DNA from: Raillietiella orientalis
Lineage: Eukaryota
Reading direction: 5' to 3'
Assembly (NCBI GenBank): GCA_036172245.1
Contig: JAYWIR010000001.1
Location: 3,410,001-3,474,000, forward strand
Length of the DNA: 64,000 nucleotides
Shown here in pieces: positions 22,700 to 64,000 of this stretch. Under the pieces are notes generated by a model. That model searched no databases, was not told the origin of the DNA, and saw only the letters and a program-made list of their open reading frames with translations. The position numbers were made by a program, and so were the translations under genes. Numbering within the stretch: position 1 is the first letter of the stretch; every line of letters starts with the position of its first letter.

Positions 22700-24500
22700 A
22701 CTGGGAATATGCACTTTTCAACTTTCTCCTCTCGCCCATCTTCCCTTTAGTCCTACGTTGCATGCATAAGCAAGAGAGGGAGGAGCAGCTATTGCAACAA
22801 AACGCGTACTCAAGCGCCTTCATAGAGTCTGCAGATACCTCTACATTCTTGTTCATACTCCTCTTTTCACCTCTCGAACACACCGACGTGGCAAAAGCAG
22901 AGGTCTCGTGTGATGAACCTGGGAGTGCACGCGTATTCAATGGGGTGACGAGGTCTCTACACTGCCCTTTGCGCAATGACTGATCCTTCGGTCTGCAGAC
23001 TGCAAGCGCACAGGAACAGGGATCTCTCCACATGCCTCGGCACCAGCACGGCTCAGGGGAGAAGCGAAACAGGGAGCCTGAGAGGGACCAGGAAACAAGG
23101 ACAACTCTCCTCACCTCCCCATTCTGGACTCCGCCTTCAAAATCGCCATCAGCAGACGCAAGGCAACACTTCGGGGAACAGATCCAGCTTCCCCTTGCCC
23201 AGAAACGTTGAAACAAACGTTTGCAAAGTTCTCGGGTCTCTGGAGGTTACCTTAAGGAAGCTGCTCGAGGGTCAATGGCTCGAAGATGTGCACACGAACC
23301 GTAACTTTCGGCTCAGGACGGAGACCTCCCGTCGCGCAACGGAGGAGTCCACTTCAAACATGCACAGCGCAACCCTGAGGCACTTCAGCTGCACCATGCT
23401 GCCACACAGGACACATGCGACCTACATTCACTCTTGCCATTTACACAAGTAGTGTTTTCACTCTGGTAGGTGGCAGAAAGATGCAGGGAAGCACGCAAAC
23501 GCCGTGTCCCGGTTGGAAACGTTCGGTCCATCCACAGCCACCAGAAGAACTCACGCTCCTTCGTTTCCCATGGAAACACCGAGAGGACACTCCCCATCCT
23601 TCCTTCCACTGGCTCCCAAACACCCATCATACCGCTGACAAAGAAGGCAACCGGAGTCTCCTTCCATTATTCCACATGCAGGACCCCCATTCTTCGACAC
23701 CGGGTTCCGGAACAAGACTCCTGCTCCTGCCACGAACGCCACTCAGCTACGAAGAACCCAAGTACCACGTCAGCGGAGCGAGCCACCCATGCGTCCCTCA
23801 AGTTTGCGCCCCTCGCGCAGCTGCGCGCCCATGCAGGCCAAAACACACGAAGCACAACCAAGGAAGCGGAGGTTCGTCCGCTTGGGCATTCGGGATGCCC
23901 ATCGCACTCGGCCCGCCGACTTCCGCATCTCCCGGACAAGCGCCTCTGCGCAACGGGGCGGAATTCTCCAGCCCACTGTGCTGAGCCACTCGCTGCGCCA
24001 CCCAACCAACACACTGCGAGACCGCGTGCCAAATCCTCCAGCTGTTAGCCTTCCAGAATCGGAATTCCTTCCAGGTCGGAGGGAAAGAAAGGCCGCCAGC
24101 TGAAAGCGGGCGAGTTCCCACTTTCAGGGTCGCAAGCAGCTTGCGCAGCACGCTGACAGAGCCTTCGTGGTAGGGTGGGAGCACGGGGTGCAACACCACG
24201 CAAGTGTCCTTTCCAACCCCACGGGAGGCGAGGTGTGGCGCCGAAGTCTTTCCGGCATCTCTGACGCAGCACCGGACTGACGCAGGAAGAGTAGCGGGCG
24301 GAGCGCCCATCGCAAAATCAGCAGGAACCGCTCGTTTCCTAAGTTTCCGCTGCTCCTTTCCTCTTCCTCCCTCCTCTCTTTCTTTCACGACGCGCGAGAG
24401 AGTGTCTGAGCAAGAGCGCGACGCTCGAGCCGATCTTCGATTCTCCCACGTGAGATGGCACCTCGACCAGCAGAACATCCCCTTCTCGAAAGATGCAGGG
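22700..24500 (+). mobile_element. Decayed L1/Tx1-like LINE spanning the outer border of the left arm
   Basis: gccttc(g)atagagtc reads as AFDRV with a 1-bp deletion. It is followed by VFNGV..CPL, SGLRLQN, CKVLG, ADKEGNRSL (GGLG-like) and aggtgtggcgccgaag..ccggcatct, which resembles the zf-RVT block at 19608. Confidence 0.55.
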
Positions 24501-25972
24501 CTTCTTTTCCACGACGACCAACGTTCCAGGAGAACCCTCCCACGACGTGCCGCAGGCCTCCGTTCCCGTCTTCCTCGCAGCCCTCTTCCTCTGCCTGAAG
24601 GCCACAAAGGACGCGTTGAACGCGGGTGCTTGCCGCAAGCAGGAAAGCGCTGCGAAGGCGCGTTTACGAGGGGAACGGTGCATCCAAAAGTCCTCCATGA
24701 AGCAGCACTACTGACCCACGAAAACGCAGGCGTAGCAGCGAGATTGCCACGCGGGAGCCCTGCACTTTCTACCCCGGTTCTCCGCGACCTCTTCCCAAGG
24801 GGACCTTCGCACGTGGAGGGAACCTCGGCCTCTTTTCCGGAGAAAGCCAAACGCGCACTCGCAAGCCACCTGCTCCTACGTTCCCAAAACGACTAACCGC
24901 TCCAAAAGTGGCCAAAGAGTTCCTCCGTCTCTTGGATTCAGTCCTGGCTTCTCTTCGCCTTCTCTTTCGCAGCCGGCACCACCGACGGACAGTCAGTCAC
25001 CCGACACCTGCCTGTCTGTCCTTCGTCCCTCTGGACGTTGGCTGCTCGGCGTTTGCACGCACTCAGGCGTGCGCTCCGCGTGCGGTGTAGCGGTGTCAGT
25101 GCCACGATGCGCACGTCGCGGTGTACTTCCGCTCCTCGGATGTTCTCCGCAAGAAACCAACCACCACCAGTGGCCGCACGAAAGAGCGTTCGAGGGGGCC
25201 CTTTCGGTCACTGCCTCGAAAACCAGCGCATCATCGTCAGCACGGTGGCCGCCCGCAGCTTCCAGTTGGATGGCCGAGGAAACGAAACCAGCCCTCTCTT
25301 CCAGTCTTCTCTTCCGGCGCTGCCCGTCCACCGGTGCGCCAGCTCCAGGAGGCGAGCCCATCCGCCGGACAGCACGGGCGACGCGCTGGCCCGAGGATAC
25401 ATGCCACGACGCCCGAGCGGGCAGCACCCTGCGATCGGCGAAACCCCGCCCGGGCGCACGCGCGGGCTCTTCGCATCGGGCCGCGGCAGCGAACCACCTG
25501 CGTGAACGCGGCGACCCCGACCCGCCCGGCAAACGCAAAGTCAGCGCCAGACCCTGCGGGCGCACTTTGGCCTTCCCAGCAGGCGAAGGGTGAACCGAGC
25601 TGCCTGTCCGATTTCCTCTTCCCCAGCGCCGATCCTCCACCCATGGGCGAGCCGTCCTGCCGACGGCGGGCACTGCGTGGGTGGCACACGCACGGCCAGC
25701 GAGCACTCCCAGCAGCCGGTTTCCCTTCCGTCCGCTGCGGCAGAGACGCACCCCGCGCCCCGTGGACGGCGTACTCTTTCCTAAACGCAACAACCAAACG
25801 CCCACAGTGTCCGGTGACCCTTCGGAGCGCTGACCGCCCCACTCGACCGCAGGAAACGCGCCGCCACCCCCACCCCCACCCCCACCCCCTCCCACTACCA
25901 CCTCGGCGAGGATCCCAAGTGAATTCCATCCGTCTATCCGTGGATCCGTTCGCTTCTTTCTTCGCTCTCCAG

Positions 25973-28900
25973 CTAGCAGCGCAGGTGGCAGCGGGAGATG
26001 GGAGCGCAGCGGGAGTCCCTGGAGCCGCTGCTGGACCTCCGCGGTCCCGACCCGAACGCGTACGGGTGGGGGCAGGGCTCCCTGAACGAGCTGCCCAAGG
26101 TCGGGCGCGACCTCATGCCGTTGCCCGGCAACGTCAGGCAAGAGCTGTAGGCCTGCCCCACCGGCGACACCGCGCTCAGCTCCACGCCAGCGACGGGCGT
26201 GGCCGCGCCGCACGCGCTGTCGGCGATCGAATGCAGGGCTGCCAGGTTCATCCGGATCTGCTTCTCCAGGGCGTCGTTCCTGTCCTTCTCGGACCGCAGC
26301 ATCGTCTCGAACTCGTTGCGGAACTGCGGGAAGGAGAGGTCAGCGGAGCTCGGTCGCCCACTACTCGCAGCGGGCCGCATCGATACCGGCGCGCGCGAAG
26401 GGCAGCAAGGAAGGGGAGGGAAGCGCAGGCGCTCGCTCGTTCTCCCGGCGCCTTTCGCTGGACGGCCACGTCGATCCGCGCGACGGGGTTGCCCTCGTCC
26501 TCCACGCCTCCTTCCGGCTCGCGCGCCAGTAGGTCAAAGGCCAGGCAAGCGATTCCACCCCCCCACCCCCCATCCTTTCACGGAGCTTCCCGTTAGCAAC
26601 CGCCTGCTCCCCCGTATGCCCAGGGCGAAAGTCGCCCTGTCGGGTCCGGAAGGCGTCCTCCGGGCAACCGACTCTGCTCCGCGGGACGCCTTCGCTCCCC
26701 GAGGGCTCCCGCTGGCGGCGATCGTTCAGCTCGCTCCGAGACAAGGCAGAGCGGAGCGACTCCGCACGAGGAGGCGAACCTGCGGCGGCGTCCGCCGCGG
26801 GCGCGGAAGCTCGCGGCACCGGCACCCTCGGAGGCCACGGACCGTCCCCGTCCCGCCGCGCACGCTGCCATCCGCCACCCGTGATCCCCTTCCCCTCCTT
26901 CCCTGCCGGCATCCAACACTGCTCTTCGTCCGCACCGCGTGGCCTCGGCCTGGGCGGCGGTCCTGGTCGCAGAGCCTGCCTACCCCGCGCAAACAAGCAA
27001 ACGATGGTCGGCGCAGCGCAGTCGCCCGCCGGGAGAGGCGCTGCTGTCCGCGACGCCCACGCCGCGCAGCGTCCCGCGGGACCAGGACGCGGGAAGGGAG
27101 CCTGCTGCACAGGAGCGCTGCGCTGCGTTGCGGGTCGCGCCGCCGCCGCCACCGCTCCGCCTTTCTCTCTCCCTCCTCGACAGGACGCTTCCGCGGTGTC
27201 CGCTCCGGGACCGGCCGACCTTTCGGGTGACCTCCTTCTGCCGCTCCCGGACCCAGCGGGTCGCGCGCGCGCCGAACCGGAACCGGCCCCGTTCGGGGCG
27301 GGAGGCGTACGTCAGGGCGAGAGGCGCGGCCCCGCCCTGGCAGACGCGCGTGCGCGCACGCGGCGCAGAGAGCTTCGCGTACCGTCCGCCTTCGGCGCTG
27401 CCGTTTCCACCAGACCGGCCCGACGGCCTCGCGTCGAGGCGGCCGCGCGCGCATCCGGCAAGCGCCTCGCGCGGCCCCCCCCGCGGCGCGCAGAGCGGCG
27501 CGGAGGTCAGCGTCCCGGAAGGGAACGGACCAGCCCGACGCCAGGAAGACTCCGCCGCGCAAGGAGGAGGAGGAGCGACAGCGAGCAAGTCCTTCCCACG
27601 ACGCGGCGGCGCGCTGCGGAAGCCCACGGTGCAGCGCTCCTGCCGGCGGGGCGGCTGCGCGGAACAACCTTCCGGGACATTCTGCCGCGCGCGCGGCGGG
27701 TGTCCTGTCTGTCCGGGAGGACCCCGTGCAACGCAGCCGCACCTCATTCGCTCCTTCTCCGGGAGAGAATCCCCGGACGAGGACCTGCGCCCAGGGCCCC
27801 CGCGCAACAACTCACCTGCGCCTTGGAGGCCTCCAACCGGCCGAGGCCTTCCGCACGTTTGTCCGCCTCCTCCTGCAGGAACCGCTCCATGGCGGCCTTG
27901 GCGTCGCGCACCTGCGCCTTCAGCTCCTCCTCCCTCTCCAGCAGGCACCGCAGCTCCTCCCGCAGGGCGTCCGCCTGCGACTTCTCCTCCTGGTACCTGC
28001 CCACCAGCGCGTCGTACTCCTCCTTTTCCTTCCTGTCGCGGTCCTCGAGCGCCTGCAGGTCGCTCTCCTCGGCCTCGACGCGCGTCCGCAGCGCTTCCTC
28101 GGCCCGCTTCGTCGACTCGGCCTTGTCCCGCAGCCACAGGACCTGCTGCTTGGCCGCCTGCAGCGCCGCGCTCTTCGCCCGCGTGTCCGCCTCCACCTCC
28201 CGCAGCCGTTCCTCCGCCTCCTGCAGCCGACCCTCCGCCTCCTGAAGCCGACCTTCTTCCTCCCGCAGCAGCCTTCGCGCCTCGCCGATCGACTCCCCTT
28301 CCAGCGCCCTCCTCCGCTCCTCCTCCTCCTCCGCGCTCTTCAGCGCACCCTCCTCCTCCTCGATCTGCTGCTGCTGTCTCGCCACCTCCTTCTCCAGCCG
28401 CTCCGCCTCGCTCCGCGGTTCCTCCGCCGCCCGCTGCAGCCTCTCCGTCTCGCACTGCAGGCGCGCCTTCTCGGCTAGCTGCGCGTTGATCTTCTCCTCC
28501 AGCTCGGCCGCCTCCAGGCTCGCCGCGTCCAGCTGCTTGGTCAGGCCCTCCAGCTCCGCCTCCGCCGCCGACACCTCCCCTTCCGACTGCTTCACCTGGA
28601 GACCGGAGCCATGCTCAAGCGTCACAGAGGACGCGAAGGAGCGATTTGCAAGGCAAGGAGCGGCCCCGGGCCATCCGCCCGTCTCGGGGACGCCTCACGC
28701 CAGCCTCCCCACCACCACCACCACCACCACCACCACCACACACACACACATACACCCTTCTTCCTCACCTTCTCCGTCAGCGACTCCACCTCCTTCTGCA
28801 GCTCCTGCAGCGCGCTCTTCTCGCTCGTCAGCTCGCCCTGCAGGCCGCCCAGCACGCGCTCGCCGTGAGAACGGGCCGCCTCCAGCTCCGCGGTCGCCTC

Positions 28901-31900
28901 CTCCACCTCCCGCCTCGCCCGCTCCACCTGCGCCGTCAGCTCGTCCACCCGGCACTGCAGCTCCTTGGCCTCGCACTCCAGCCGGTTCCTCTCGTGCGCG
29001 CCGCTCTCGTTCTCCCTCTCCAGGTCCGAGATCTCCTGCTCCAGCTCCCGGATTATCCCCTCAGTCTCCTTCAGCTGGATCCGCTTGTCCTTCAGCCGCG
29101 ACTCGGCCTCTTCCAGCAGGCGCTCCTTCTCCTGCTCCTGGAACGCACGCGCGCCGTTCGCGCACCTCCCGGCGCATGCGCACTCCTCTCACCTCCGACC
29201 GCAGACGATCCACCTCCTTCTCCAGCTGCGCGTTCAGGTTCTCCTTCGACTGGAGCTCCTCCTTCAGGTCCTGCATCCTCTTCTCGTGGTCCATCTCCAT
29301 GCTGTCCCTCTCGTTCTTCAGCTGGCTCGACAGCAGGATCTCCTTCTGCAGCGCGTCCTCCACCTCCTCCAGGTGACCCTTCTCCCTCGCGATCTTCGCC
29401 TGCAGCTCCTGGATGCGCGCGTACGCCTTCGACACCTCCCGCTGGCACTCGGAGATCTCCGCCTCCAGGGCCGCGCTGCGCTCGCTCTCCGTCACCAGGT
29501 CGCCCTTCTTCTGCGACAGCCTGTCCAGCGTCGACGACACCTCCTGCTCCAGCCGGCAGCTCTCCTCCTCCGCCTGCCTCACCTCCTCCTCCAGCTTCTG
29601 CCTCGAGGCCACCTCGCGCTGCAGCTCCGCCCGCAGGTGCGACTCCTCGTCCCGCAGCGCCGACAGCGCGCCCTCCTCCGCCGTGCACTTCTTCTCCGCC
29701 TCCTGAGACTGCCGCTGCAGCTCCTCCAGGCGCTTACGCATCTCCCGCTTCTCCTCCTGGATGCACGCCAGCTCGTCCTTCCACGACTTCAGCGACCCCA
29801 GCTTGTTCCTCAGCTGCAGCATCTCCTCCTTCGCCGAGTCCAGGTCGGCCTGGTACCTCTGCTTCTGCTCCTCCACGCCGCGCAGCTCCAGCTCCTTCTC
29901 GGTGATCTTCCTCACCAGGTCCTCCACCTCGCGGATCCTCGACAGCTTCTGTCGGGGGCGCGCACGCCCCCGTCAGGGTCCATCCACACCAAACTACCCG
30001 CCGTTCCACCTCCCCTTTCCTACCCCGGGCGCGCCCGCGAACCACCAGCCAGCGGCAAACAATCCGGCGCATCGCGGCACCCTCCCTGCAAGCGGGCAGC
30101 GCAGAACCACCGGCGCACGTCCGCTTCCAGCCAAACGGCACCGAAGAGGCGCCCTGCAATCGCCCCATTTCCCCTCCACAGAATCCCTCCCATCGCCGAG
30201 CCACGGGTCCGCTGGCCAGCATTCCGACGCTCGTCGTCGCCGCTACCTCGGAAACGGCTTGCGGACGGTGCGGGCACCCTCTCCGACGAACGACGCCCCA
30301 CGCACGCAGCCGCCAACCCTTCCTGCGGACATCCAGCACTTCATCCCTGCATCCGCGGCGCGTCGGAGCGCTTCCCGACGCCACCGCAGCGCTCGATACG
30401 CGTCCGCCTCCAGGCGTACCCAGCAGCAAGGCGCCGGAATCTTTCCGAGCACGCACGCGGACGAACGCGTCGTCCTCGGAAAAGGTGGGCGAAAGAAACG
30501 CCGCTAGGCAGTGGGCATGCAGTGGAGCGGGGGTGGGGATTACCACCCGGGTACGAAGGGAATGCGGGCGCCTCCCCGGCGGAAGAGCAGAACGCTGCGA
30601 GAGCGTGGTCGGCTCGGCACGAGGCACACACGCTTCGCCCTTCCCTGCGCACCCGACGCCCCCCGGAAGGGCAGCGAACAGCGAATCCGCCAGGCGTACG
30701 CCATGGAGCCGTCTGGCACGACGGCTGGCAGTCGTCTGCAGTGGCAGAGTCCGCCCGTGCCGCGTGCGAGAGCGAGGCACGCGAGCTTTGCCGGCAGCTG
30801 CTGCACGACCCGACGGGGGGACTTCGCAGCTGCTGCCACTGCCGCCGGCCAACAGGCAGGTCCCTCCTTCCTGTCCCTCTCTCCGGAAGCAGCGCGCACC
30901 TTCCATAAACGCTGCAAAGGTCCCTCCTCTTCCCTTCCTCCTTACCCGTCCGCCGTCGTCTTCGACGATTCCCCCGCGAGGGCGTACGCACCTCTGCTCC
31001 GAGCGCCGCCGACACCCACCTGCCGCGCGTCTGCCCGTTTAGCTCCCGCAGCAGCGCCGCGTCTTCCGCACCCCCCGTGCCACCCGGAGGGGACCGTGCG
31101 CGAAATCCGCCTCGCCGCGAACCATGCGCTGGACCCGCGCTGCACTCACGTCGCAGTAGTCCTTCCTGGTGGCAAACTCCGCGCTCGGGCAGCAGGAGGA
31201 TGCGGACGGAGAGGACGCTTCCACGAAGAACACGTTGGTGCACACTTGGGACGCCGCGTTCACCTCCGAGCACGGGTAAGACGGGTGGTCGTCCAAAGGA
31301 TACGCGCCTCCCGCTTTGTCTCTCTCCGCGTTTCCCCTTTCCTCTTCCACATTCTAAGCACCAGGGAGAAACCGGTTGGCCGTGGCAACTCCTCCCAGCC
31401 CGCGGTGGCTGGCCGCCATCTCCACGCTCCATCGTCGCCTGAAAATCCCGTCGCCGCGCTCGCGAACCAAAGCCTCTCCGCACTGTCCGCACCCGGATCC
31501 CAGTTCTGCGCCCACTCGCTTCCCGGACGGGTCGGCTCGCTCGCCGGAGCCTTCCGGCGGACGGTGGGCCTGCTGAGAGTCGCGCCGGTTCCCGCAGGGC
31601 CGCCCAGTTTCGCTGGACCGCGCAAGCGGGATAGAAAAGTCCCGAAAGGTGGAGCCCGCGCGCGTCTCCCAACCACGTGGCTTGCAACTCCGACACCTGA
31701 AGCGCACAACGGCCCCTCCTCCGTCTCTCGGAAGCGGACGCGTCCCCGTTCCTCCTGCCGTTTCCCGCGTTACGAGTCAGCGGAGGCGGCAGCAGACCCC
31801 AGTCCCTGCCTGCCTGCCTGCTTCTTCCTTACCCGTGTGTTCCGGCCCTGATGACGGCCACCTCTGTCGGTTGCCGCGTAGTCGATCCCCTGGAAACAAA

Positions 31901-32276: not shown

Positions 32277-32370
32277 GTTTCCCTCCGGCAACACGAGCAG
32301 ATCAATCAACGCAGTCGGCAAATTTGGCACCAAACAAAGTCACAGCACCCAACCTGCGACCTTCCGAAAA

Positions 32371-32384: not shown

Positions 32385-33849
32385 CGAATCCGGAACTCGA
32401 TGGATTTGCTTTTCCATTCACTAAGGCGATGGACAATTGTTGCGGCGCACGCGGAACATCTCCGCGTCGTCACCTTGCGACCGCCGTCCTCATCGTGACG
32501 AGCGCGCACAGGCCGCACTTTCCCGATGACGCGCGCGTTCGTCCCGGGTCAGGACGACGACCGAGCAGCCCGACACTTGCCTGCGCCCCACCGCACCTTC
32601 TTTCTGCTCGCACGCAGAAAGCACGTTCTTGCCCATCCTCCGGGGCATCGCGCATTCTTACCATCCCGCGATTCTCGCGGGAACAGTTACCGAAAGCCGC
32701 GCCTGCTCGCCTTCCCTTCCGGTGGGTCCCGCAAAACGCACTCTCCTCCGCAGGCATTCCGCAGCCCGAGGAAGGCGTCTGCTGATTGCAGGACCGTGCG
32801 GCGCACTGCCACCCGTCCGGTCCCCAATCGCTCAGCCGTCCGAAGAAGAGAGCCAAACCGCCCACGCGGCAGAACCGCAGAACGCGGACCGCGCGACGCT
32901 TCGGCCACGCAACTTCCCTCATTCGCGCACCAAACCGAACGGCACGCTTTCCTATGGGGAGAAGGCAGGCAGGGGTTCGGGGAGAGGCACAGAGTCCGCT
33001 TCCTGACCAGAAATCGCGGAAACGGTTTGGAGTCGCGCAGTCCCCGGAACATCACGCGCTGGCCGACGGCAGCGCATGCCTTCTCGGTCGGCTGGTGCCG
33101 CGGTCGGACGGACACGAGAGACGACGATCCACCAGCGAAACGAACCGAACGAACGGAAATCGGCTGCATGGCGGACGCCGCCGCCGCCTGGTTTGCGAGC
33201 CCGCAGGAGATCCGGCAGCGGGACGCGGCAGCTCGAAGGCCAGTGTTGGGAAGGAGGGCCGACCTGCATGGCCCTCTGGGCGAGCTCGGCAACAAGAAAG
33301 GAGGGAGGTTTTCCGCATCGAAGCGTCGATCCGTACGTTCGCTTTTCGACCGGACACACCGGAGGTGCCCGCGTCCGGTAGGCCGTGCCCTTTTTTTTTT
33401 CGTGCCTTTCGACCTCGACAAAGGGGTATCGGACTTCCTCGCTCGAGAGTCCAAAATCTTCCACTTGGAAGTGAGCGGAGATCAGGAGGAGAGAAGGTGG
33501 AAGGAGCTAGAGCTGAACAGGGAACAGGACAATCTCGTGTTACCGTTCGGTACTGTCTTCGTATCCGGAAGGGCGGCGCAAGGGACAAAGGGGAGAAGAG
33601 GAGACCGAAGCGGGGAGAGTTTGCCACCGAGCAGTTTCTTTGCGAGTTCCCACGCGACCGCATAGTCAGCTTTGGTCTCCCCTCTCGTTTCCGTCGTGCT
33701 TGCTCCGTCTCTGGCCAAACGGTGCGGCGCCTCGGTCCACCAATCGGGTTCTTCTGCACGCACCCCGATCTTCCGGGAACGATTTCGCGCTTCTGTTGCG
33801 CAAGAATTAGGTGGACTCTGTGCTCATGAAGCAGCGGAAGCGGTTCCAG

Positions 33850-34245
33850 GATTCTCTCTTTTCGTGTTTTCAAAGGCGCTCCCTGAAAGAAGCAGCGCGA
33901 CTTCTTCACGCTCTGGAGAGGTGGCTCCCCGAGGGGGTATCAACCACCTCCACGGAACGGCTTCATTTTCACAACCGAAGGGATTGAATGCTGAAGGGAA
34001 CCGCCGCTCCTGGATTCCTGGAAGGACCCCAGATAACGAACTTCCGAAACCGGTTACCTACCGGGTCCGGCAATTTCCTTCTTCAGCCACTGCCGCACCC
34101 GAAGCCTACAGGCCAACCAGCGTCGTCTTGCGGGGGCGGCTCGAAATCCAGGTCGCAGGCCCCCATTTCCCGTCGTCGACCCTCCACGTGGGGACTCTGA
34201 CTCGCAACGCTGGATGTCACGCGCTACGCGCAAAGACCGCAGACA
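33850..34245 (-). mobile_element. Dispersed repeat, probable SINE (copy 3, in the palindrome spacer)
   Basis: Colinear similarity to 1-432 (aaaggcgct...ctctggagagg...tatcaacca...acggaacggct.cattttca...ctcgaaa...gcccccatttc...cgcaacgctgg). Confidence 0.7.
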
Positions 34246-37099: not shown

Positions 37100-38100
37100 T
37101 CCAGCTTCTTGCAGGAGGCTCTAAAATCCAGTGGCGTCCTGCTCTAGCTTTCCATACATTGCGGTGGTGCTGACACCAGTACCAATCCTCAGAAAAACAA
37201 TTCTCAACAGAAGGCCCTGTTCCAATTCCTGCATGCAAACAAAGCTGCCAGACTCTCCCTCTTTAAAAAAGAGCTCTCAAAGGTCAACAGACTGCTTTTC
37301 AACCATCAATGCATCTTGGGAAGGAAACCATACCCTCCAAAGAGCAACCACCAAGAACCTTTTGCTTTCTTCCTCTTGCACAGTTGGTATCAACAAACTA
37401 CAAGCAGCACCAAGAATTCTTCACCCAAAGAGATGAAATGGAGAATCCGCCCAAAGCTGTCCACCAAGAGGATGCCACTCACAGGAATACAGAGTACTGG
37501 GCACTCTGCATCTCTTCAAACAGATTCAACATGCTGGTGCTCCTTTTGTTCCAAGGATGCTCTTCATGCAAAATTATCTAATCTTGCAATGAATCCACCC
37601 TGATTTCCTCAAGACTCTGAAACTCTACGTGACAAACTCTGATGGGGAAGTATTGAAAGGAACTGGGAATGGGAACCTATGTTGCACCCTGAACCAAACA
37701 GTTCCTTCATCAAACAGGATCACATTAGACAGTCATATGAAAGGTATAACAAACCAGCAAGGAAAATGCAGTGGTTTTGCAGAGCCCATGCCAGTGATTT
37801 CCTTGCAGACTTGAAACTTCAACAGAACTTTGAGCTTAGAGAGCAGTTGCTCTGCCAATGGGGGTCAGCATAGCAAGAACAAAGCATCTCCAACACTTGC
37901 ATGGAATTGCACCTGCACACGGAAATCAGGGTCCATTCCTGTTGCATGTGCAGACATTCTTATTTCCACAGTAAAGGTGCCAAGCCTATCATGTAGGTAG
38001 ACAGTCTGTTGAGCAAGCAATCAAACATCAGGCCAGGTTTGCAATTTTCAATGACTCCCAATCCAATCACAGTTGTTCTGAAGAAGCAATTCAACAATTG
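37100..38100 (-). mobile_element. Highly decayed, CpG-depleted LINE (L1-like) remnant
   Basis: Minus-strand CYADP (YADD-like, ~37862-37876), followed by CKEITGM and PFQYFPI (PF.YLG-like); many stops. Confidence 0.35.
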
Positions 38101-38559
38101 CAAGATTCACACACTAGTGCACCTCGAAACTGCACATGAACAGAACTGCTATTCTCAGCAATGAACCAACACATAGCAAGAGGAGGCACGCTCTCCATGA
38201 AAATACCTACACCTTCAACGCAAGGTAATTTCAAAAAGAGAAACCACAGAACAGGTAATCAAACAACAACAGCAAGTACTTACACATGGGTGAAACCGGG
38301 AATCATCTGCCTTTCCGCTGCCTTGCACATCCCATTTGTACAATACGCCAGAATGCTGAAATGACCTTTTCCATTTCTCAATCGGTCGTTCATCGTTTCC
38401 TTATGGACCTGCGTGATTCTCCCATCGATTGCAAACAAAAAAAAATACCTACACAAAACAAACCCTGAATGCTACCGATTTCCCTAAAGTTGAGTTTGCA
38501 GTGCAACTAACCGCTTCCCGTGCAAACAGCTCTTTAGGAGTTCCTTGCAGTACTTGCTC

Positions 38560-39360
38560 CAACTTGACAACATGCCATCGCTGCTTTCTTCATGAAGCTG
38601 AACGAACAAAACACGGAGGATGCATGCCGTGGATGTCCTCAAACTGCAGTGCACGCTTTACACCCTTTGCACACCATCGTACGTGTGCCTGCAAAGGCGA
38701 GCTCGGGTTCGGCCTGCCTCCTTGCAGCACGTGGAAACTTGCTTGCCCGCCGTGGAAGAGCCTTGCGGTCCATCCGACAAGCCGTTTGCCGATCACGTTC
38801 ACAAGAGCAAACTCTTCGTGCTCGATTCCGCCTAGAGGAGCAGTCCTACACGTTTTCAAAATGGAAAAAAAGACGAAGTTTTGGTCAGCAAACTGACGAA
38901 AGACGGGCGCAACGGATGTCGGGTGCGACATTGCAGTCGCACGGCTGCCAGTCGCCATCGACGCTGCTGCCTCCCTCTCACGCGTCGCTCACCGAAATCT
39001 TCACCAGCCCTCGCGATCAATCCGATATTTCATAACTGGACACGATTCGTGAGAACCTGCCTACCGTGTATTTGCATTTCGTTGCACAATGCTCAGGCAT
39101 GCATGCCGACACTTCGGCACCTCTTCGGTTACCCAGCGCAACGAGCCTTCTGGCGCCAGGCAATGGACATGGAGCGCATTCAGCTCGCGCCTCCATTTGT
39201 GGGTGAAACCTTCCCTCTACGTGTCTTGCCCTCCAGATTCATGGAGAACACACGAGTTGTGGGAACTCGTAGGAAGCGAAGATCCTTGGAGCGCAACACT
39301 TCTCAAGCGAATTATCGACACGAAAACAACAAAAAACAAAAAAAGCAATCTGCTATCATC
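38560..39360 (+). mobile_element. Decayed RTE-like LINE 3' remnant
   Basis: KLNEQNT, KSKLF, KLTKDGRNGC and RLHL...LWELVG...TLLKRIID resemble RTE C-terminal motifs in order; an A-rich stretch follows. Confidence 0.4.
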
Positions 39361-41437
39361 TTTTGAAAGCGCGCGAGAACAAAGAATGGTCTATCCATTC
39401 CTTTTGCCTTTATGCGCTTGCTGGCTGTGCATTACTGAAGAGACTCTCAGTTGGCTGCACGTGTTTCCTGTGTTTTCATTACAGTGGTATTGTGCACCGG
39501 TGCAACTGTGTTTTCCTTAACGGACTTTGCGCGCGAGGGAGGGAAGTTCCGATTTCTTTCTTCCTTTTGATTTTCCAGTCGCCTGTTGCTGGAATTAGAC
39601 GGTCACCTGGACATCGAAGGCATGCGATCCTGACGAGTAGAAAAGAGAGATTCGGGTGGCAGTGTCGATCATCTCCCGGATGCTCCGAGGCGATTATTTC
39701 ACATAAAAAGATAAACATTTCCGATCTCTGTGGTTGGACCAACCACGTGCATGTTAACGAGAAGCTGCCGCGTCACCTGTGCGCAGACCGGTGAGGTCCT
39801 CCACGGCAGAAGAGAGGAGGGATAGAAGAAAAGAAAAAAGGGAAACAAAAATCAAAATAAAGAAACAAATTTCCGGGGTGCGCGGAGGGATCACTTTCTG
39901 CTGAGGGCGGCCACCGTATCCTTTCGAGGATGCCGGCAAGCTCTTGCTGCACGCAGTGCTTCAGTTTGGTTGCCATCTCGTTGCCATCCTTGCGAAGCGG
40001 ACGGCGAAGGGACATCTCTGTGCCCTCCTCTTGAGTGACTTTAGGCAGCTGCAATCCCGCGTAGGCAACGGAGAGCTGCCCACGATGGGCGCAAAATTAC
40101 CCTGCGGGCCGAAAGGCGTCACGAATGAAGAGGGGCTTCCGAGAGTGCCTGTAATTGCCGCCGGGCGTTCCTAGGGTCGCGGGGAAACTGCTCGGTGGCA
40201 AACTCTCCCCGCTTCGGTCTCCTCTTCTCCCCTTTGTCCCTTGCGCCGCCCTTCCGGATACGAAGACAGTACCGAACGGTAACACGAGATTGTCCTGTTC
40301 CCTGTTCAGCTCTAGCTCCTTCCACCTTCTCTCCTCCTGATCTCCGCTCACTTCCAAGTGGAAGATTTTGGACTCTCGAGCGAGGAAGTCCGATACCCCT
40401 TTGTCGAGGTCGAAAGGCACGAAAAAAAAAAGGGCACGGCCTACCGGACGCGGGCACCTCCGGTGTGTCCGGTCGAAAAGCGAACGTACGGATCGACGCT
40501 TCGATGCGGAAAACCTCCCTCCTTTCTTGTTGCCGAGCTCGCCCAGAGGGCCATGCAGGTCGGCCCTCCTTCCCAACACTGGCCTTCGAGCTGCCGCGTC
40601 CCGCTGCCGGATCTCCTGCGGGCTCGCAAACCAGGCGGCGGCGGCGTCCGCCATGCAGCCGATTTCCGTTCGTTCGGTTCGTTTCGCTGGTGGATCGTCG
40701 TCTCTCGTGTCCGTCCGACCGCGGCACCAGCCGACCGAGAAGGCATGCGCTGCCGTCGGCCAGCGCGTGATGTTCCGGGGACTGCGCGACTCCAAACCGT
40801 TTCCGCGATTTCTGGTCAGGAAGCGGACTCTGTGCCTCTCCCCGAACCCCTGCCTGCCTTCTCCCCATAGGAAAGCGTGCCGTTCGGTTTGGTGCGCGAA
40901 TGAGGGAAGTTGCGTGGCCGAAGCGTCGCGCGGTCCGCGTTCTGCGGTTCTGCCGCGTGGGCGGTTTGGCTCTCTTCTTCGGACGGCTGAGCGATTGGGG
41001 ACCGGACGGGTGGCAGTGCGCCGCACGGTCCTGCAATCAGCAGACGCCTTCCTCGGGCTGCGGAATGCCTGCGGAGGAGAGTGCGTTTTGCGGGACCCAC
41101 CGGAAGGGAAGGCGAGCAGGCGCGGCTTTCGGTAACTGTTCCCGCGAGAATCGCGGGATGGTAAGAATGCGCGATGCCCCGGAGGATGGGCAAGAACGTG
41201 CTTTCTGCGTGCGAGCAGAAAGAAGGTGCGGTGGGGCGCAGGCAAGTGTCGGGCTGCTCGGTCGTCGTCCTGACCCGGGACGAACGCGCGCGTCATCGGG
41301 AAAGTGCGGCCTGTGCGCGCTCGTCACGATGAGGACGGCGGTCGCAAGGTGACGACGCGGAGATGTTCCGCGTGCGCCGCAACAATTGTCCATCGCCTTA
41401 GTGAATGGAAAAGCAAATCCATCGAGTTCCGGATTCG

Positions 41438-41451
41438 GTTGCTATGAGAAC
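41438..41451 (+). promoter_or_regulatory. RFX X-box (GTTGCTATGAGAAC) upstream of coiled-coil gene copy B
   Basis: Fits the degenerate X-box consensus RYYNYY-N(1-3)-RRNRAC (GTTGCT-AT-GAGAAC) and ends 95 bp before the predicted ATG at 41546. Confidence 0.55.
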
Positions 41452-41545
41452 TTTTCGGAAGGTCGCAGGTTGGGTGCTGTGACTTTGTTTGGTGCCAAAT
41501 TTGCCGACTGCGTTGATTGATCTGCTCGTGTTGCCGGAGGGAAAC

Positions 41546-44500
41546 ATGGAGGAAAGCGCGGAAAAGGGCACCATGGTGAGCTGCTCCGGATTCGTCGGTC
41601 GCTTGCATCGCTAGCACTCGCACGCACCCTTCCTTTTTTTCGTCTGGTTCCTAGGGTCGGACGAAATGCCCGCGGCCATCTCCCTTGCCTCGGCGCGAGG
41701 CTGGCTCCAGGAAACGGATCCGGAAACCGAAGTTGCCGCCGAGGTCGCCGTATGCGCGCGCGCACGCGAGCGCGGATGGCTGCGGCGGCCATCGGCGCCG
41801 TTGCAGCTCCGTCGCGTCGCGTGGAGGGCACGTCGCGGTGAGCGCGCCCCTTGAGGAGAAGTGTTGGATCGCTGCAGCGGGATGAGAGAAAGGGAGAGGG
41901 TTCACGGCCACCTGGACACCCTTTGTTTCCAGGGGATCGACTACGCGGCAACCGACAGAGGTGGCCGTCATCAGGGCCGGAACACACGGGTAAGGAAGAA
42001 GCAGGCAGGCAGGCAGGGACTGGGGTCTGCTGCCGCCTCCGCTGACTCGTAACGCGGGAAACGGCAGGAGGAACGGGGACGCGTCCGCTTCCGAGAGACG
42101 GAGGAGGGGCCGTTGTGCGCTTCAGGTGTCGGAGTTGCAAGCCACGTGGTTGGGAGACGCGCGCGGGCTCCACCTTTCGGGACTTTTCTATCCCGCTTGC
42201 GCGGTCCAGCGAAACTGGGCGGCCCTGCGGGAACCGGCGCGACTCTCAGCAGGCCCACCGTCCGCCGGAAGGCTCCGGCGAGCGAGCCGACCCGTCCGGG
42301 AAGCGAGTGGGCGCAGAACTGGGATCCGGGTGCGGACAGTGCGGAGAGGCTTTGGTTCGCGAGCGCGGCGACGGGATTTTCAGGCGACGATGGAGCGTGG
42401 AGATGGCGGCCAGCCACCGCGGGCTGGGAGGAGTTGCCACGGCCAACCGGTTTCTCCCTGGTGCTTAGAATGTGGAAGAGGAAAGGGGAAACGCGGAGAG
42501 AGACAAAGCGGGAGGCGCGTATCCTTTGGACGACCACCCGTCTTACCCGTGCTCGGAGGTGAACGCGGCGTCCCAAGTGTGCACCAACGTGTTCTTCGTG
42601 GAAGCGTCCTCTCCGTCCGCATCCTCCTGCTGCCCGAGCGCGGAGTTTGCCACCAGGAAGGACTACTGCGACGTGAGTGCAGCGCGGGTCCAGCGCATGG
42701 TTCGCGGCGAGGCGGATTTCGCGCACGGTCCCCTCCGGGTGGCACGGGGGGTGCGGAAGACGCGGCGCTGCTGCGGGAGCTAAACGGGCAGACGCGCGGC
42801 AGGTGGGTGTCGGCGGCGCTCGGAGCAGAGGTGCGTACGCCCTCGCGGGGGAATCGTCGAAGACGACGGCGGACGGGTAAGGAGGAAGGGAAGAGGAGGG
42901 ACCTTTGCAGCGTTTATGGAAGGTGCGCGCTGCTTCCGGAGAGAGGGACAGGAAGGAGGGACCTGCCTGTTGGCCGGCGGCAGTGGCAGCAGCTGCGAAG
43001 TCCCCCCGTCGGGTCGTGCAGCAGCTGCCGGCAAAGCTCGCGTGCCTCGCTCTCGCACGCGGCACGGGCGGACTCTGCCACTGCAGACGACTGCCAGCCG
43101 TCGTGCCAGACGGCTCCATGGCGTACGCCTGGCGGATTCGCTGTTCGCTGCCCTTCCGGGGGGCGTCGGGTGCGCAGGGAAGGGCGAAGCGTGTGTGCCT
43201 CGTGCCGAGCCGACCACGCTCTCGCAGCGTTCTGCTCTTCCGCCGGGGAGGCGCCCGCATTCCCTTCGTACCCGGGTGGTAATCCCCACCCCCGCTCCAC
43301 TGCATGCCCACTGCCTAGCGGCGTTTCTTTCGCCCACCTTTTCCGAGGACGACGCGTTCGTCCGCGTGCGTGCTCGGAAAGATTCCGGCGCCTTGCTGCT
43401 GGGTACGCCTGGAGGCGGACGCGTATCGAGCGCTGCGGTGGCGTCGGGAAGCGCTCCGACGCGCCGCGGATGCAGGGATGAAGTGCTGGATGTCCGCAGG
43501 AAGGGTTGGCGGCTGCGTGCGTGGGGCGTCGTTCGTCGGAGAGGGTGCCCGCACCGTCCGCAAGCCGTTTCCGAGGTAGCGGCGACGACGAGCGTCGGAA
43601 TGCTGGCCAGCGGACCCGTGGCTCGGCGATGGGAGGGATTCTGTGGAGGGGAAATGGGGCGATTGCAGGGCGCCTCTTCGGTGCCGTTTGGCTGGAAGCG
43701 GACGTGCGCCGGTGGTTCTGCGCTGCCCGCTTGCAGGGAGGGTGCCGCGATGCGCCGGATTGTTTGCCGCTGGCTGGTGGTTCGCGGGCGCGCCCGGGGT
43801 AGGAAAGGGGAGGTGGAACGGCGGGTAGTTTGGTGTGGATGGACCCTGACGGGGGCGTGCGCGCCCCCGACAGAAGCTGTCGAGGATCCGCGAGGTGGAG
43901 GACCTGGTGAGGAAGATCACCGAGAAGGAGCTGGAGCTGCGCGGCGTGGAGGAGCAGAAGCAGAGGTACCAGGCCGACCTGGACTCGGCGAAGGAGGAGA
44001 TGCTGCAGCTGAGGAACAAGCTGGGGTCGCTGAAGTCGTGGAAGGACGAGCTGGCGTGCATCCAGGAGGAGAAGCGGGAGATGCGTAAGCGCCTGGAGGA
44101 GCTGCAGCGGCAGTCTCAGGAGGCGGAGAAGAAGTGCACGGCGGAGGAGGGCGCGCTGTCGGCGCTGCGGGACGAGGAGTCGCACCTGCGGGCGGAGCTG
44201 CAGCGCGAGGTGGCCTCGAGGCAGAAGCTGGAGGAGGAGGTGAGGCAGGCGGAGGAGGAGAGCTGCCGGCTGGAGCAGGAGGTGTCGTCGACGCTGGACA
44301 GGCTGTCGCAGAAGAAGGGCGACCTGGTGACGGAGAGCGAGCGCAGCGCGGCCCTGGAGGCGGAGATCTCCGAGTGCCAGCGGGAGGTGTCGAAGGCGTA
44401 CGCGCGCATCCAGGAGCTGCAGGCGAAGATCGCGAGGGAGAAGGGTCACCTGGAGGAGGTGGAGGACGCGCTGCAGAAGGAGATCCTGCTGTCGAGCCAG

Positions 44501-47500
44501 CTGAAGAACGAGAGGGACAGCATGGAGATGGACCACGAGAAGAGGATGCAGGACCTGAAGGAGGAGCTCCAGTCGAAGGAGAACCTGAACGCGCAGCTGG
44601 AGAAGGAGGTGGATCGTCTGCGGTCGGAGGTGAGAGGAGTGCGCATGCGCCGGGAGGTGCGCGAACGGCGCGCGTGCGTTCCAGGAGCAGGAGAAGGAGC
44701 GCCTGCTGGAAGAGGCCGAGTCGCGGCTGAAGGACAAGCGGATCCAGCTGAAGGAGACTGAGGGGATAATCCGGGAGCTGGAGCAGGAGATCTCGGACCT
44801 GGAGAGGGAGAACGAGAGCGGCGCGCACGAGAGGAACCGGCTGGAGTGCGAGGCCAAGGAGCTGCAGTGCCGGGTGGACGAGCTGACGGCGCAGGTGGAG
44901 CGGGCGAGGCGGGAGGTGGAGGAGGCGACCGCGGAGCTGGAGGCGGCCCGTTCTCACGGCGAGCGCGTGCTGGGCGGCCTGCAGGGCGAGCTGACGAGCG
45001 AGAAGAGCGCGCTGCAGGAGCTGCAGAAGGAGGTGGAGTCGCTGACGGAGAAGGTGAGGAAGAAGGGTGTATGTGTGTGTGTGTGGTGGTGGTGGTGGTG
45101 GTGGTGGTGGTGGGGAGGCTGGCGTGAGGCGTCCCCGAGACGGGCGGATGGCCCGGGGCCGCTCCTTGCCTTGCAAATCGCTCCTTCGCGTCCTCTGTGA
45201 CGCTTGAGCATGGCTCCGGTCTCCAGGTGAAGCAGTCGGAAGGGGAGGTGTCGGCGGCGGAGGCGGAGCTGGAGGGCCTGACCAAGCAGCTGGACGCGGC
45301 GAGCCTGGAGGCGGCCGAGCTGGAGGAGAAGATCAACGCGCAGCTAGCCGAGAAGGCGCGCCTGCAGTGCGAGACGGAGAGGCTGCAGCGGGCGGCGGAG
45401 GAACCGCGGAGCGAGGCGGAGCGGCTGGAGAAGGAGGTGGCGAGACAGCAGCAGCAGATCGAGGAGGAGGAGGGTGCGCTGAAGAGCGCGGAGGAGGAGG
45501 AGGAGCGGAGGAGGGCGCTGGAAGGGGAGTCGATCGGCGAGGCGCGAAGGCTGCTGCGGGAGGAAGAAGGTCGGCTTCAGGAGGCGGAGGGTCGGCTGCA
45601 GGAGGCGGAGGAACGGCTGCGGGAGGTGGAGGCGGACACGCGGGCGAAGAGCGCGGCGCTGCAGGCGGCCAAGCAGCAGGTCCTGTGGCTGCGGGACAAG
45701 GCCGAGTCGACGAAGCGGGCCGAGGAAGCGCTGCGGACGCGCGTCGAGGCCGAGGAGAGCGACCTGCAGGCGCTCGAGGACCGCGACAGGAAGGAAAAGG
45801 AGGAGTACGACGCGCTGGTGGGCAGGTACCAGGAGGAGAAGTCGCAGGCGGACGCCCTGCGGGAGGAGCTGCGGTGCCTGCTGGAGAGGGAGGAGGAGCT
45901 GAAGGCGCAGGTGCGCGACGCCAAGGCCGCCATGGAGCGGTTCCTGCAGGAGGAGGCGGACAAACGTGCGGAAGGCCTCGGCCGGTTGGAGGCCTCCAAG
46001 GCGCAGGTGAGTTGTTGCGCGGGGGCCCTGGGCGCAGGTCCTCGTCCGGGGATTCTCTCCCGGAGAAGGAGCGAATGAGGTGCGGCTGCGTTGCACGGGG
46101 TCCTCCCGGACAGACAGGACACCCGCCGCGCGCGCGGCAGAATGTCCCGGAAGGTTGTTCCGCGCAGCCGCCCCGCCGGCAGGAGCGCTGCACCGTGGGC
46201 TTCCGCAGCGCGCCGCCGCGTCGTGGGAAGGACTTGCTCGCTGTCGCTCCTCCTCCTCCTTGCGCGGCGGAGTCTTCCTGGCGTCGGGCTGGTCCGTTCC
46301 CTTCCGGGACGCTGACCTCCGCGCCGCTCTGCGCGCCGCGGGGGGGGCCGCGCGAGGCGCTTGCCGGATGCGCGCGCGGCCGCCTCGACGCGAGGCCGTC
46401 GGGCCGGTCTGGTGGAAACGGCAGCGCCGAAGGCGGACGGTACGCGAAGCTCTCTGCGCCGCGTGCGCGCACGCGCGTCTGCCAGGGCGGGGCCGCGCCT
46501 CTCGCCCTGACGTACGCCTCCCGCCCCGAACGGGGCCGGTTCCGGTTCGGCGCGCGCGCGACCCGCTGGGTCCGGGAGCGGCAGAAGGAGGTCACCCGAA
46601 AGGTCGGCCGGTCCCGGAGCGGACACCGCGGAAGCGTCCTGTCGAGGAGGGAGAGAGAAAGGCGGAGCGGTGGCGGCGGCGGCGCGACCCGCAACGCAGC
46701 GCAGCGCTCCTGTGCAGCAGGCTCCCTTCCCGCGTCCTGTTCCCGCGGGACGCTGCGCGGCGTGGGCGTCGCGGACAGCAGCGCCTCTCCCGGCGGGCGA
46801 CTGCGCTGCGCCGACCATCGTTTGCTTGTTTGCGCGGGGTAGGCAGGCTCTGCGACCAGGACCGCCGCCCAGGCCGAGGCCACGCGGTGCGGACGAAGAG
46901 CAGTGTTGGATGCCGGCAGGGAAGGAGGGGAAGGGGATCACGGGTGGCGGATGGCAGCGTGCGCGGCGGGACGGGGACGGTCCGTGGCCTCCGAGGGTGC
47001 CGGTGCCGCGAGCTTCCGCGCCCGCGGCGGACGCCGCCGCAGGTTCGCCTCCTCGTGCGGAGTCGCTCCGCTCTGCCTTGTCTCGGAGCGAGCTGAACGA
47101 TCGCCGCCAGCGGGAGCCCTCGGGGAGCGAAGGCGTCCCGCGGAGCAGAGTCGGTTGCCCGGAGGACGCCTTCCGGACCCGACAGGGCGACTTTCGCCCT
47201 GGGCATACGGGGGAGCAGGCGGTTGCTAACGGGAAGCTCCGTGAAAGGATGGGGGGTGGGGGGGTGGAATCGCTTGCCTGGCCTTTGACCTACTGGCGCG
47301 CGAGCCGGAAGGAGGCGTGGAGGACGAGGGCAACCCCGTCGCGCGGATCGACGTGGCCGTCCAGCGAAAGGCGCCGGGAGAACGAGCGAGCGCCTGCGCT
47401 TCCCTCCCCTTCCTTGCTGCCCTTCGCGCGCGCCGGTATCGATGCGGCCCGCTGCGAGTAGTGGGCGACCGAGCTCCGCTGACCTCTCCTTCCCGCAGTT

Positions 47501-47849
47501 CCGCAACGAGTTCGAGACGATGCTGCGGTCCGAGAAGGACAGGAACGACGCCCTGGAGAAGCAGATCCGGATGAACCTGGCAGCCCTGCATTCGATCGCC
47601 GACAGCGCGTGCGGCGCGGCCACGCCCGTCGCTGGCGTGGAGCTGAGCGCGGTGTCGCCGGTGGGGCAGGCCTACAGCTCTTGCCTGACGTTGCCGGGCA
47701 ACGGCATGAGGTCGCGCCCGACCTTGGGCAGCTCGTTCAGGGAGCCCTGCCCCCACCCGTACGCGTTCGGGTCGGGACCGCGGAGGTCCAGCAGCGGCTC
47801 CAGGGACTCCCGCTGCGCTCCCATCTCCCGCTGCCACCTGCGCTGCTAG
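41546..47849 (+). CDS. Long coiled-coil protein, ~848 aa, copy B. Predicted exons 41546-41575, 41933-41989, 42469-42672, 43874-44629, 44685-45053, 45227-46006, 47499-47849
   Basis: Exons 4-6 encode E/K/R/L/Q-rich heptad sequence (KLSRIREVEDLVRKITEKELEL...; EQEKERLLEEAESRL...; VKQSEGEVSAAEAELEG...) with strongly biased GAG/AAG/CTG codons. Every junction is GT..AG and joins in phase 0 (donors gtgagc, gtaagg, gtgagt, gtgaga, gtgagg, gtgagt). Start is aaacATGG (MEESAEKGTM) with an in-frame TGA at 41480; stop is TAG at 47847-47849. Exons 4-7 are secure; exons 1-3 are less certain. Confidence 0.82.
45070..45112. repeat. (GT)n(GGT)n microsatellite in intron 5 of copy B
   Basis: Direct reading; same length as its mirror copy. 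Confidence 0.9.
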
Positions 47850-49321: not shown

Positions 49322-50842
49322 CCCTGCATCTTTCGAGAAGGGGATGTTCTGCTGGTCGAGGTGCCATCTCACGTGGGAGAATCGAAGATCGGCTCGAGCG
49401 TCGCGCTCTTGCTCAGACACTCTCTCGCGCGTCGTGAAAGAAAGAGAGGAGGGAGGAAGAGGAAAGGAGCAGCGGAAACTTAGGAAACGAGCGGTTCCTG
49501 CTGATTTTGCGATGGGCGCTCCGCCCGCTACTCTTCCTGCGTCAGTCCGGTGCTGCGTCAGAGATGCCGGAAAGACTTCGGCGCCACACCTCGCCTCCCG
49601 TGGGGTTGGAAAGGACACTTGCGTGGTGTTGCACCCCGTGCTCCCACCCTACCACGAAGGCTCTGTCAGCGTGCTGCGCAAGCTGCTTGCGACCCTGAAA
49701 GTGGGAACTCGCCCGCTTTCAGCTGGCGGCCTTTCTTTCCCTCCGACCTGGAAGGAATTCCGATTCTGGAAGGCTAACAGCTGGAGGATTTGGCACGCGG
49801 TCTCGCAGTGTGTTGGTTGGGTGGCGCAGCGAGTGGCTCAGCACAGTGGGCTGGAGAATTCCGCCCCGTTGCGCAGAGGCGCTTGTCCGGGAGATGCGGA
49901 AGTCGGCGGGCCGAGTGCGATGGGCATCCCGAATGCCCAAGCGGACGAACCTCCGCTTCCTTGGTTGTGCTTCGTGTGTTTTGGCCTGCATGGGCGCGCA
50001 GCTGCGCGAGGGGCGCAAACTTGAGGGACGCATGGGTGGCTCGCTCCGCTGACGTGGTACTTGGGTTCTTCGTAGCTGAGTGGCGTTCGTGGCAGGAGCA
50101 GGAGTCTTGTTCCGGAACCCGGTGTCGAAGAATGGGGGTCCTGCATGTGGAATAATGGAAGGAGACTCCGGTTGCCTTCTTTGTCAGCGGTATGATGGGT
50201 GTTTGGGAGCCAGTGGAAGGAAGGATGGGGAGTGTCCTCTCGGTGTTTCCATGGGAAACGAAGGAGCGTGAGTTCTTCTGGTGGCTGTGGATGGACCGAA
50301 CGTTTCCAACCGGGACACGGCGTTTGCGTGCTTCCCTGCATCTTTCTGCCACCTACCAGAGTGAAAACACTACTTGTGTAAATGGCAAGAGTGAATGTAG
50401 GTCGCATGTGTCCTGTGTGGCAGCATGGTGCAGCTGAAGTGCCTCAGGGTTGCGCTGTGCATGTTTGAAGTGGACTCCTCCGTTGCGCGACGGGAGGTCT
50501 CCGTCCTGAGCCGAAAGTTACGGTTCGTGTGCACATCTTCGAGCCATTGACCCTCGAGCAGCTTCCTTAAGGTAACCTCCAGAGACCCGAGAACTTTGCA
50601 AACGTTTGTTTCAACGTTTCTGGGCAAGGGGAAGCTGGATCTGTTCCCCGAAGTGTTGCCTTGCGTCTGCTGATGGCGATTTTGAAGGCGGAGTCCAGAA
50701 TGGGGAGGTGAGGAGAGTTGTCCTTGTTTCCTGGTCCCTCTCAGGCTCCCTGTTTCGCTTCTCCCCTGAGCCGTGCTGGTGCCGAGGCATGTGGAGAGAT
50801 CCCTGTTCCTGTGCGCTTGCAGTCTGCAGACCGAAGGATCAG
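49322..50842 (-). mobile_element. Mirror copy of the L1/Tx1 remnant, 5'-truncated at the outer border of the right arm
   Basis: Reverse complement of 22980-24500; the RT motifs upstream of 22980 are absent beyond 50842. Confidence 0.55.

Positions 50843-61604: not shown

Positions 61605-64000
<2,396 letters not shown>

Follow-up and report, generated by a model that had tools for sequence, protein, structure and literature searches.

A Gene-Bearing Palindrome with Near-Identical Arms in the Genome Assembly of Raillietiella orientalis, Interpreted as a Young Inverted Duplication

Here, we describe a large gene-bearing palindrome in 64,000 nt of assembled Raillietiella orientalis DNA (assembly GCA_036172245.1, contig JAYWIR010000001.1, positions 3,410,001 to 3,474,000 of the forward strand); this whole stretch is referred to below as the window, and all coordinates are counted from its first base. 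A repeat search of the window returned a single long inverted repeat pair, 22980-33645 and 40177-50842, with 10,666 nt per arm and 6,531 nt between the arms, and each arm carries one spliced gene for a predicted coiled-coil protein (Table 1). Arms and spacer together form a unit of 27.9 kb, bordered inside the window by 23 kb of unique flank on the left and 13 kb on the right. On balance, we favor the reading that this is a real, young, interstitial inverted duplication of which the left arm is probably the parent.

The arms are nearly identical over their entire length. A base-by-base count over the 10,666 nt gave a constant register (x + x' = 73822) with five mismatches and no insertions or deletions, and a sensitive self-blastn of the window reported the arms as one ungapped 10,666-nt alignment of 99.953% identity. 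A chance origin is ruled out for a repeat of this length. All homopolymers of at least 7 nt (T10, C8, C7, and A7) and microsatellites of at least five units [(CCA)10, (CA)6, (CTC)5, (CG)5 twice, and (GC)5] lie inside the ungapped alignment and thus have the same length in both arms. An earlier note on this DNA, made from the sequence alone, had described near-identical, gene-bearing arms in this fixed register, with homopolymers and microsatellites of equal length and with genes arranged head-to-head. These observations are borne out by the count and the alignment, and the left gene copy lies on the minus strand and the right copy on the plus strand, so that both are transcribed away from the spacer. 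The note had also reported only two substitutions, both noncoding. The two isolated substitutions are indeed present, one in the long intron and the other past the stop codon, and neither falls in a homopolymer; a block of three further mismatches at the inner edge, TTT in one arm and CCC in the other, has to be added to the tally.

The limits of the repeat are equally well defined. Strict arm identity stops at 33638/40184, the same limit as in the earlier note. Sensitive self-blastn, repeated at a word size of 7, detected no residual similarity beyond any of the four arm edges, and self-blastn found no arm homology inside the spacer, none between the left and the right flank, and none between the two spacer ends. 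The outer junction shows at most 1 nt of shared sequence. At the inner junction, a 4-nt inverted match (GCGA) is located 3 nt past the identity edge; a run of at least four matches within 8 nt after a break was seen in 2,195 of 149,189 random inverted pairings of the window (1.5%). The GCGA match is at most suggestive of inverted microhomology at a template-switch or fold-back junction, and the TTT/CCC block could equally represent a mutation cluster at the breakpoint.

Table 1. Features of the palindrome and its spacer, in window coordinates
Feature	Position	Strand or orientation	Details
Left arm	22980..33645	gene on minus strand	10,666 nt, 66.3% GC, strict identity to 33638
Spacer	33646..40176		unique, 6,531 nt
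Right arm	40177..50842	gene on plus strand	reverse complement of left arm
Substitution 1	24840 (partner 48982)	left G vs right A, left-arm orientation	1.1 kb 3' of stop codon
Substitution 2	27082 (partner 46740)	left C vs right A, left-arm orientation	inside 1.49-kb intron
Inner-edge block	33639-33641 (partner 40181-40183)	TTT left vs CCC right	5-7 nt from inner edge
Last match past block	left arm to 33645 (partner 40177-40180)		4 nt, GCGA
Right gene copy	43874..47849	+	exons 43874-44629, 44685-45053, 45227-46006, 47499-47849 (last ends in stop codon)
Left gene copy	25973..29948	-	exons 29193-29948, 28769-29137, 27816-28595, 25973-26323
Candidate first coding exon	41546..41575	+	ATG + 9 codons, GTGAGC donor, phase 0; mirror 32247-32276 minus strand; unverified
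Dispersed repeat 1, spacer copy	33872..34222		~65% identical to 66-397 and 8406-8821; 226 nt inside spacer from left arm
Dispersed repeat 2, spacer copy	39742..40084	inverted	62.6% identical to 7444-7809, also similar to 19887-20047; ends 92 nt before right arm

One gene per arm was picked out by the periodicity of its GC content along codon positions. The open frame comprises 751 codons over four exons, followed by a single stop codon, with GC contents of 0.709, 0.392, and 0.955 at the first, second, and third codon positions (GC1, GC2, and GC3), and its residues include 20% E, 12% L, 11% A, and 11% R. The three introns (55, 173, and 1,492 nt) are all of the GT-AG type, with the donors GAG/GTGAGA, AAG/GTGAGG, and CAG/GTGAGT (the slash marks the exon end) and acceptors that all end in CAG. 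A direct comparison of the left and right copies showed their coding sequences to be letter-identical.

Within the arm, 3.7 kb precede the first certain exon, and 3.0 kb follow the stop codon. The first certain exon opens at a splice acceptor, and thus at least one upstream exon is missing from the gene model. Scanning upstream of exon 1, including into the spacer, for open reading frame (ORF) pieces with biased GC3 gave only short, unconvincing stretches, and a single candidate start exon, 1.4 kb inside the arm, passed the filters that we applied to 38000-43873 (an ATG, an open frame, a phase-0 donor scoring at least 4/6, and GC3 of at least 0.8). The earlier claim that each arm holds a whole gene with its promoter therefore goes beyond the evidence: the stop codon and 751 codons are contained in the arm, whereas the start codon is a candidate. 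A complete gene with promoter in each arm is plausible but putative.

The coding region at 43850-46008 (mirror 27814-29972) is internally repetitive, with self-alignments at offsets of ~300-1,400 nt at ~58% identity over 0.3-2 kb, and carries several 21-nt (7-codon) tandem repeat tracts. This pattern suggests that the gene has grown as heptad-based units were duplicated within it.

Pfam analysis of the exon ORFs produced just weak, sub-threshold coiled-coil matches, and a word-indexed protein search ('longer' lengths) yielded no match at an E value of ≤0.001 among 7,998 scored candidates. An exhaustive HMMER search of 1.84 billion representatives returned four matches at an E value of ≤0.001 and none at 1e-10; according to Pfam, these four are generic coiled-coil or repeat proteins, and they were rejected as relatives. 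The best score of an Atlas search with the last exon (0.76) was under the lead threshold, and none of 51 pattern matches in the viral contig collection was confirmed as a relative. In the window outside the arms, tblastn with the four exons found no third paralog (nothing better than an E value of 0.14). The gene is thus a predicted coiled-coil gene without recognizable relatives in these searches and, on this evidence, lineage specific. The survey's index contained no look-alike of the locus, either by sequence or by place among relatives, and a 33-nt string from the arm edge had no exact match in metagenome contigs. The ampliconic palindrome that the earlier note offered as one of its readings gained no support: the gene, without relatives or a named domain and without a second look-alike in that index, shows no tie to the germline, to sex linkage, or to an ampliconic family.

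The arms also stand out in base composition. GC content is 66.3% in the arms, 53.5% in the left flank, 46.1% in the right flank, and 52.8% in the spacer. Noncoding arm DNA reaches 65.7% and the 1.49-kb intron 73.7%, and therefore the arm GC excess is not a coding effect. Within each arm, GC is lowest over the outermost 750 nt (0.54-0.56). The junctions differ from each other: the right arm is set off by a GC change of ~0.11 on either side, and the outer junction of the left arm by one of ~0.10, but at the inner-left junction (33645/33646) the step is 0.01, and GC stays at 0.57-0.68 for ~2 kb and does not drop to ~0.45 before ~36.6 kb. In composition, the spacer appears to combine two sorts of DNA, a left part (33646-36500) with an observed/expected CpG ratio of 1.19 and 54-64% GC through ~36.6 kb and a remainder (36501-40176) of mostly 44-48% GC (44-56% in 500-nt steps) with a ratio of 0.73. 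The GC-rich domain is accordingly not bounded by the arms and extends ~2.4 kb into the spacer on the left side only. In terms of composition, a preexisting GC-rich region that was copied fits better than GC-biased conversion limited to the arms. Since the left arm is compositionally continuous with the spacer and the right arm is stepped at both of its junctions, we read the left arm as the probable parent; the right arm would probably be the copy, set into DNA of lower GC content.

These observations can be accommodated by the following scenario. A single replication or repair accident would have copied the 10.66-kb GC-rich segment backwards and placed it 6.5 kb away. Probably, it took the form of a fold-back or template switch, for which a few bases of inverted microhomology served as primer at the inner junction; the outer junction would have been closed by an almost blunt join. 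The left arm and the left part of the spacer probably formed the original stretch, and the right arm would be the copy. With the event being interstitial, a second switch or an end-join back to the chromosome would be needed. The arms would be alike mainly through too little time for divergence, to which occasional arm-to-arm conversion may contribute. The outcome would be two identical, divergently oriented gene copies and, probably, a doubled dosage.

Several features of the locus favor youth. A single copying event predicts exactly what is seen, namely ungapped arms, two isolated substitutions, and four sharp edges with unrelated flanks. In an old palindrome, frayed and partly diverged edges are more often expected. 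Sharp edges, equal microsatellites, and composition together favor a recent origin. Assuming mutation rates of 5e-9 to 1e-9 per site per generation, as taken from general knowledge, two differences in 10,659 nt would correspond, without conversion, to ~1.9e4 to 9.4e4 generations.

Certain points weigh against a young duplication with the left arm as parent. Both the assembled structure and its copy number come from the assembly alone. The GC content of the arms, including their noncoding DNA, is far above that of both flanks, and long-standing GC-biased conversion would also produce this. The assignment of parent and copy draws on base composition as its single line of evidence, the 4-nt microhomology is weak, and the 5' end of the gene depends on a candidate exon, which makes the complete gene copies putative. 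The assembled structure, the gene model between the first certain exon and the stop codon, the coding identity of the two copies, and the want of mobile-element hallmarks are observed directly; we infer that the assembly is correct, how the copy arose, which arm is parental, and that youth rather than conversion accounts for the identity of the arms. A young duplication and a conversion-maintained palindrome are not separable from a single assembled locus, and our analysis ends at the alternatives from which the earlier note had started: a very recent inverted duplication or a palindrome maintained by conversion, with misassembly as a further possibility.

With regard to geometry, a close parallel to a young inverted duplication is found in fold-back inverted duplications sequenced in humans. 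Their spacers range from 766 to 70,466 bp, with a median of 3,428 bp, and the junction of spacer and inverted copy has 2-8 bp of inverted microhomology (Hermetz et al. 2014, PMC3907307). The locus described here shares with them the order of a noninverted copy, a unique spacer of a few kilobases (6.5 kb), and an inverted copy (PMC3907307). Its 4-nt inverted match, displaced from the junction by 3 nt, may correspond to their microhomology. Unlike this locus, the human cases covered there are terminal, lie beside a deletion, translocation, or ring, and range from kilobases to tens of megabases (PMC3907307). The present palindrome is interstitial, returns to unique flank via a second junction, and is present in an assembly rather than having been caught de novo. 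Next to its inverted copy, neither a terminal deletion nor a telomere addition or translocation was encountered; 13 kb of ordinary unique sequence with a Regnase-like gene follows.

A small inversion with staggered breaks can give the same topology (PMC7584159). The two models predict different pairs of novel junctions: after a fold-back or insertion, both would border the same arm, whereas a staggered-break inversion would leave an inner one at one arm and an outer one at the other. Duplications of this kind (Ranz et al. 2007 and others, reviewed in PMC7584159) likewise place an inverted duplicate at both ends of a segment that may be inverted, in our case the 6.5-kb spacer. However, the duplicates described there measure tens to hundreds of bases at the inversion ends, whereas the arms are 10.7 kb long here and thus longer than the segment between them (PMC7584159).

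The main competitor of a young duplication is an older palindrome whose arms are held near-identical by frequent GC-biased arm-to-arm conversion, a process that would have raised the GC content of the arms and driven the GC3 of the gene to 0.955. We regard this as a tentative alternative, possible but rather unlikely. Arm-to-arm gene conversion in primate sex-chromosome palindromes was reportedly described by Rozen et al. in 2003. The GC content of the arms over flanks and spacer, its persistence in noncoding DNA and the intron, and the equal microsatellite lengths would all suit such a process, and the primate X and Y palindromes are a close structural match, since there, too, a unique spacer is enclosed by large inverted repeats of more than 99.9% identity, the arms contain a protein-coding gene, and arm GC content is above that of the flanks (Jackson et al. 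2021, PMC8981503). Arms of human X palindromes have 46.3% GC, compared with 41.2% in the flanks, and spacers are intermediate, being partly former arm DNA (PMC8981503). By analogy, spacer DNA that was once part of an arm could explain the GC-rich left part of the spacer.

Unlike in the primate palindromes, the arms here are 10.7 kb rather than tens of kilobases to megabases long, and the GC excess is much larger and not arm bounded (PMC8981503). It amounts to 13-20 points, several times the ~5 points in primates, of which simulations credit conversion with less than 20% over 29 million years (PMC8981503). For conversion alone to yield 13-20 points, it would therefore have to be far stronger or act for far longer. 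Moreover, homology breaks off sharply at each of the four edges, with no decayed remnant further out, and the GC-rich domain is centered on the gene, declining toward the outer ends of the arms and continuing into the spacer on one side only. The two arm differences, seen without an outgroup, are unpolarized.

A broader version of the same idea would place the locus in a large set of GC-rich palindromes that carry genes, lie on ordinary chromosomes, and are kept letter-identical by strongly GC-biased conversion that drives GC3 to 0.955 and introns to 74% GC. We consider this less likely still. If it were true, an invertebrate would have palindromes comparable to those of primate sex chromosomes, with a much more pronounced imprint on base composition, and they would offer a natural setting in which to measure biased gene conversion.

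Drosophila offers structures that bear on the same choice. 'Palindromic' gene pairs in concerted evolution, such as Hsp70Aa/Ab, Amy-p/Amy-d, and Amy3/Amy4 (PMC3924832), resemble the present locus in that each arm has one gene and that the copies are mirror images of high identity. In most of the Drosophila cases, concerted evolution is limited to coding sequence and was shown by species comparison, unlike here, where 8.4 kb of noncoding arm DNA is alike as well (PMC3924832). For Amy3/Amy4, homogeneous in coding and noncoding sequence, both conversion and recent duplication were left possible (PMC3924832).

A further explanation is that the second arm is absent from the genome or from this arrangement, owing to chimeric long reads, such as amplification-induced inverted chimeras, or to a wrong path through the assembly graph. 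We think it improbable. Near-perfect identity, extending to repeat lengths, is what an artifact would leave, whole-genome amplification makes artificial palindromic long reads (10.1101/173872), and palindromes in published surveys have been flagged as possible assembly errors (PMC7953838). A single inverted chimera, however, creates one novel junction and does not return to unique flank, whereas two different novel junctions occur in one path here, and the true join of spacer to flank would have to be missing from the assembly. The unique 6.5-kb spacer, the position of the structure well inside the window, and the two isolated differences between the arms, neither in a homopolymer, also speak against an artifact. 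The earlier note had likewise cited the substitutions, the junctions, and the unique spacer as arguments against a simple fold-back chimera.

An element with very long terminal inverted repeats, either a foldback-type transposon or an endogenous viral element, is hardly credible: all that suggests it is the layout, in which a pair of long inverted repeats encloses a central segment, and the dispersed repeats near both spacer ends, but no target-site duplication was found around the 27.9-kb unit (AATGA at the end of the left flank, CTAGT at the start of the right flank) or either arm, Pfam searches detected no transposase, reverse transcriptase, integrase, or viral family in 58 arm ORFs of at least 100 amino acids or in 62 ORFs of the spacer and near flanks, the arms contain a spliced host-type gene with three GT-AG introns, and neither the viral contigs nor the survey's index supplied a relative or look-alike. 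Pfam likewise assigned no domain to any of the 35 spacer ORFs tested, including those overlapping the spacer copy of dispersed repeat 1.

Two dispersed repeat families are represented in the spacer. Repeat 1 is ~400 nt long and occurs in three copies, at 3-408, 8339-8821, and 33872-34222, that are mutually 64-67% identical. Members of the second family, at 7066-7809, 19364-20053, and 39742-40084, are 58-66% identical. Either family could in principle indicate the ancestral arm by continuing across an arm; no such continuation was found, and neither repeat is interrupted by an arm.

The surroundings of the palindrome contain further recognizable features. Some 10 kb past the outer edge of the right arm, exons at 61560-62114 and 62887-63489 on the plus strand belong to a gene of the Regnase/ZC3H12 type, with UBA_6 (E value, 3e-15) and an NYN ribonuclease domain (E value, 4e-33); the closest solved chain to the latter is ZC3H12C (E value, 9e-34). 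These domains identify the DNA as animal. The tested piece of the NYN exon has a GC content of at most 0.52 at every codon position, compared with 0.955 at third positions of the arm gene. A 339-codon open frame at 14921-15937 on the plus strand, in the left flank, resembles a protein in composition, with low R, P, A, G, and S, but has no Pfam match; it may be an exon of an unrecognized gene. A short, near-perfect local palindrome (~42 nt, 95%) is located at 58582-58625 in the right flank. Rfam at gathering thresholds gave no matches in the window, and ARAGORN detected no tRNAs in it.

Gene-bearing palindromes are already known, including in invertebrates, where they were described in the springtail Folsomia candida and the rotifer Adineta vaga (PMC5490193, PMC7953838). 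Those palindromes and the present locus have in common inverted duplicated genes on one scaffold, knowledge from the assembly only, and the caveat of misassembly (PMC5490193, PMC7953838). They differ in that the published examples were recognized by gene collinearity, mostly comprise multigene blocks, and cover a wide range of synonymous divergence (Ks) (PMC5490193, PMC7953838), whereas a single gene is involved here and divergence is near zero, noncoding DNA included. The R. orientalis locus joins these palindromes as a clean example of near-zero divergence with an orphan gene of extreme GC3.

Taken alone, the palindrome, known from the assembly only, adds one ordinary example to a type of rearrangement that is already familiar. 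Provided that the assembled structure is real, a gene duplication has been caught here with hardly any divergence, and its two breakpoints can still be read. The locus would then be useful for understanding how inverted duplications arise in the invertebrate germline and whether a new head-to-head gene pair starts concerted evolution, and it could contribute to testing, on a genome-wide scale, for GC-biased conversion in nonmammalian palindromes.

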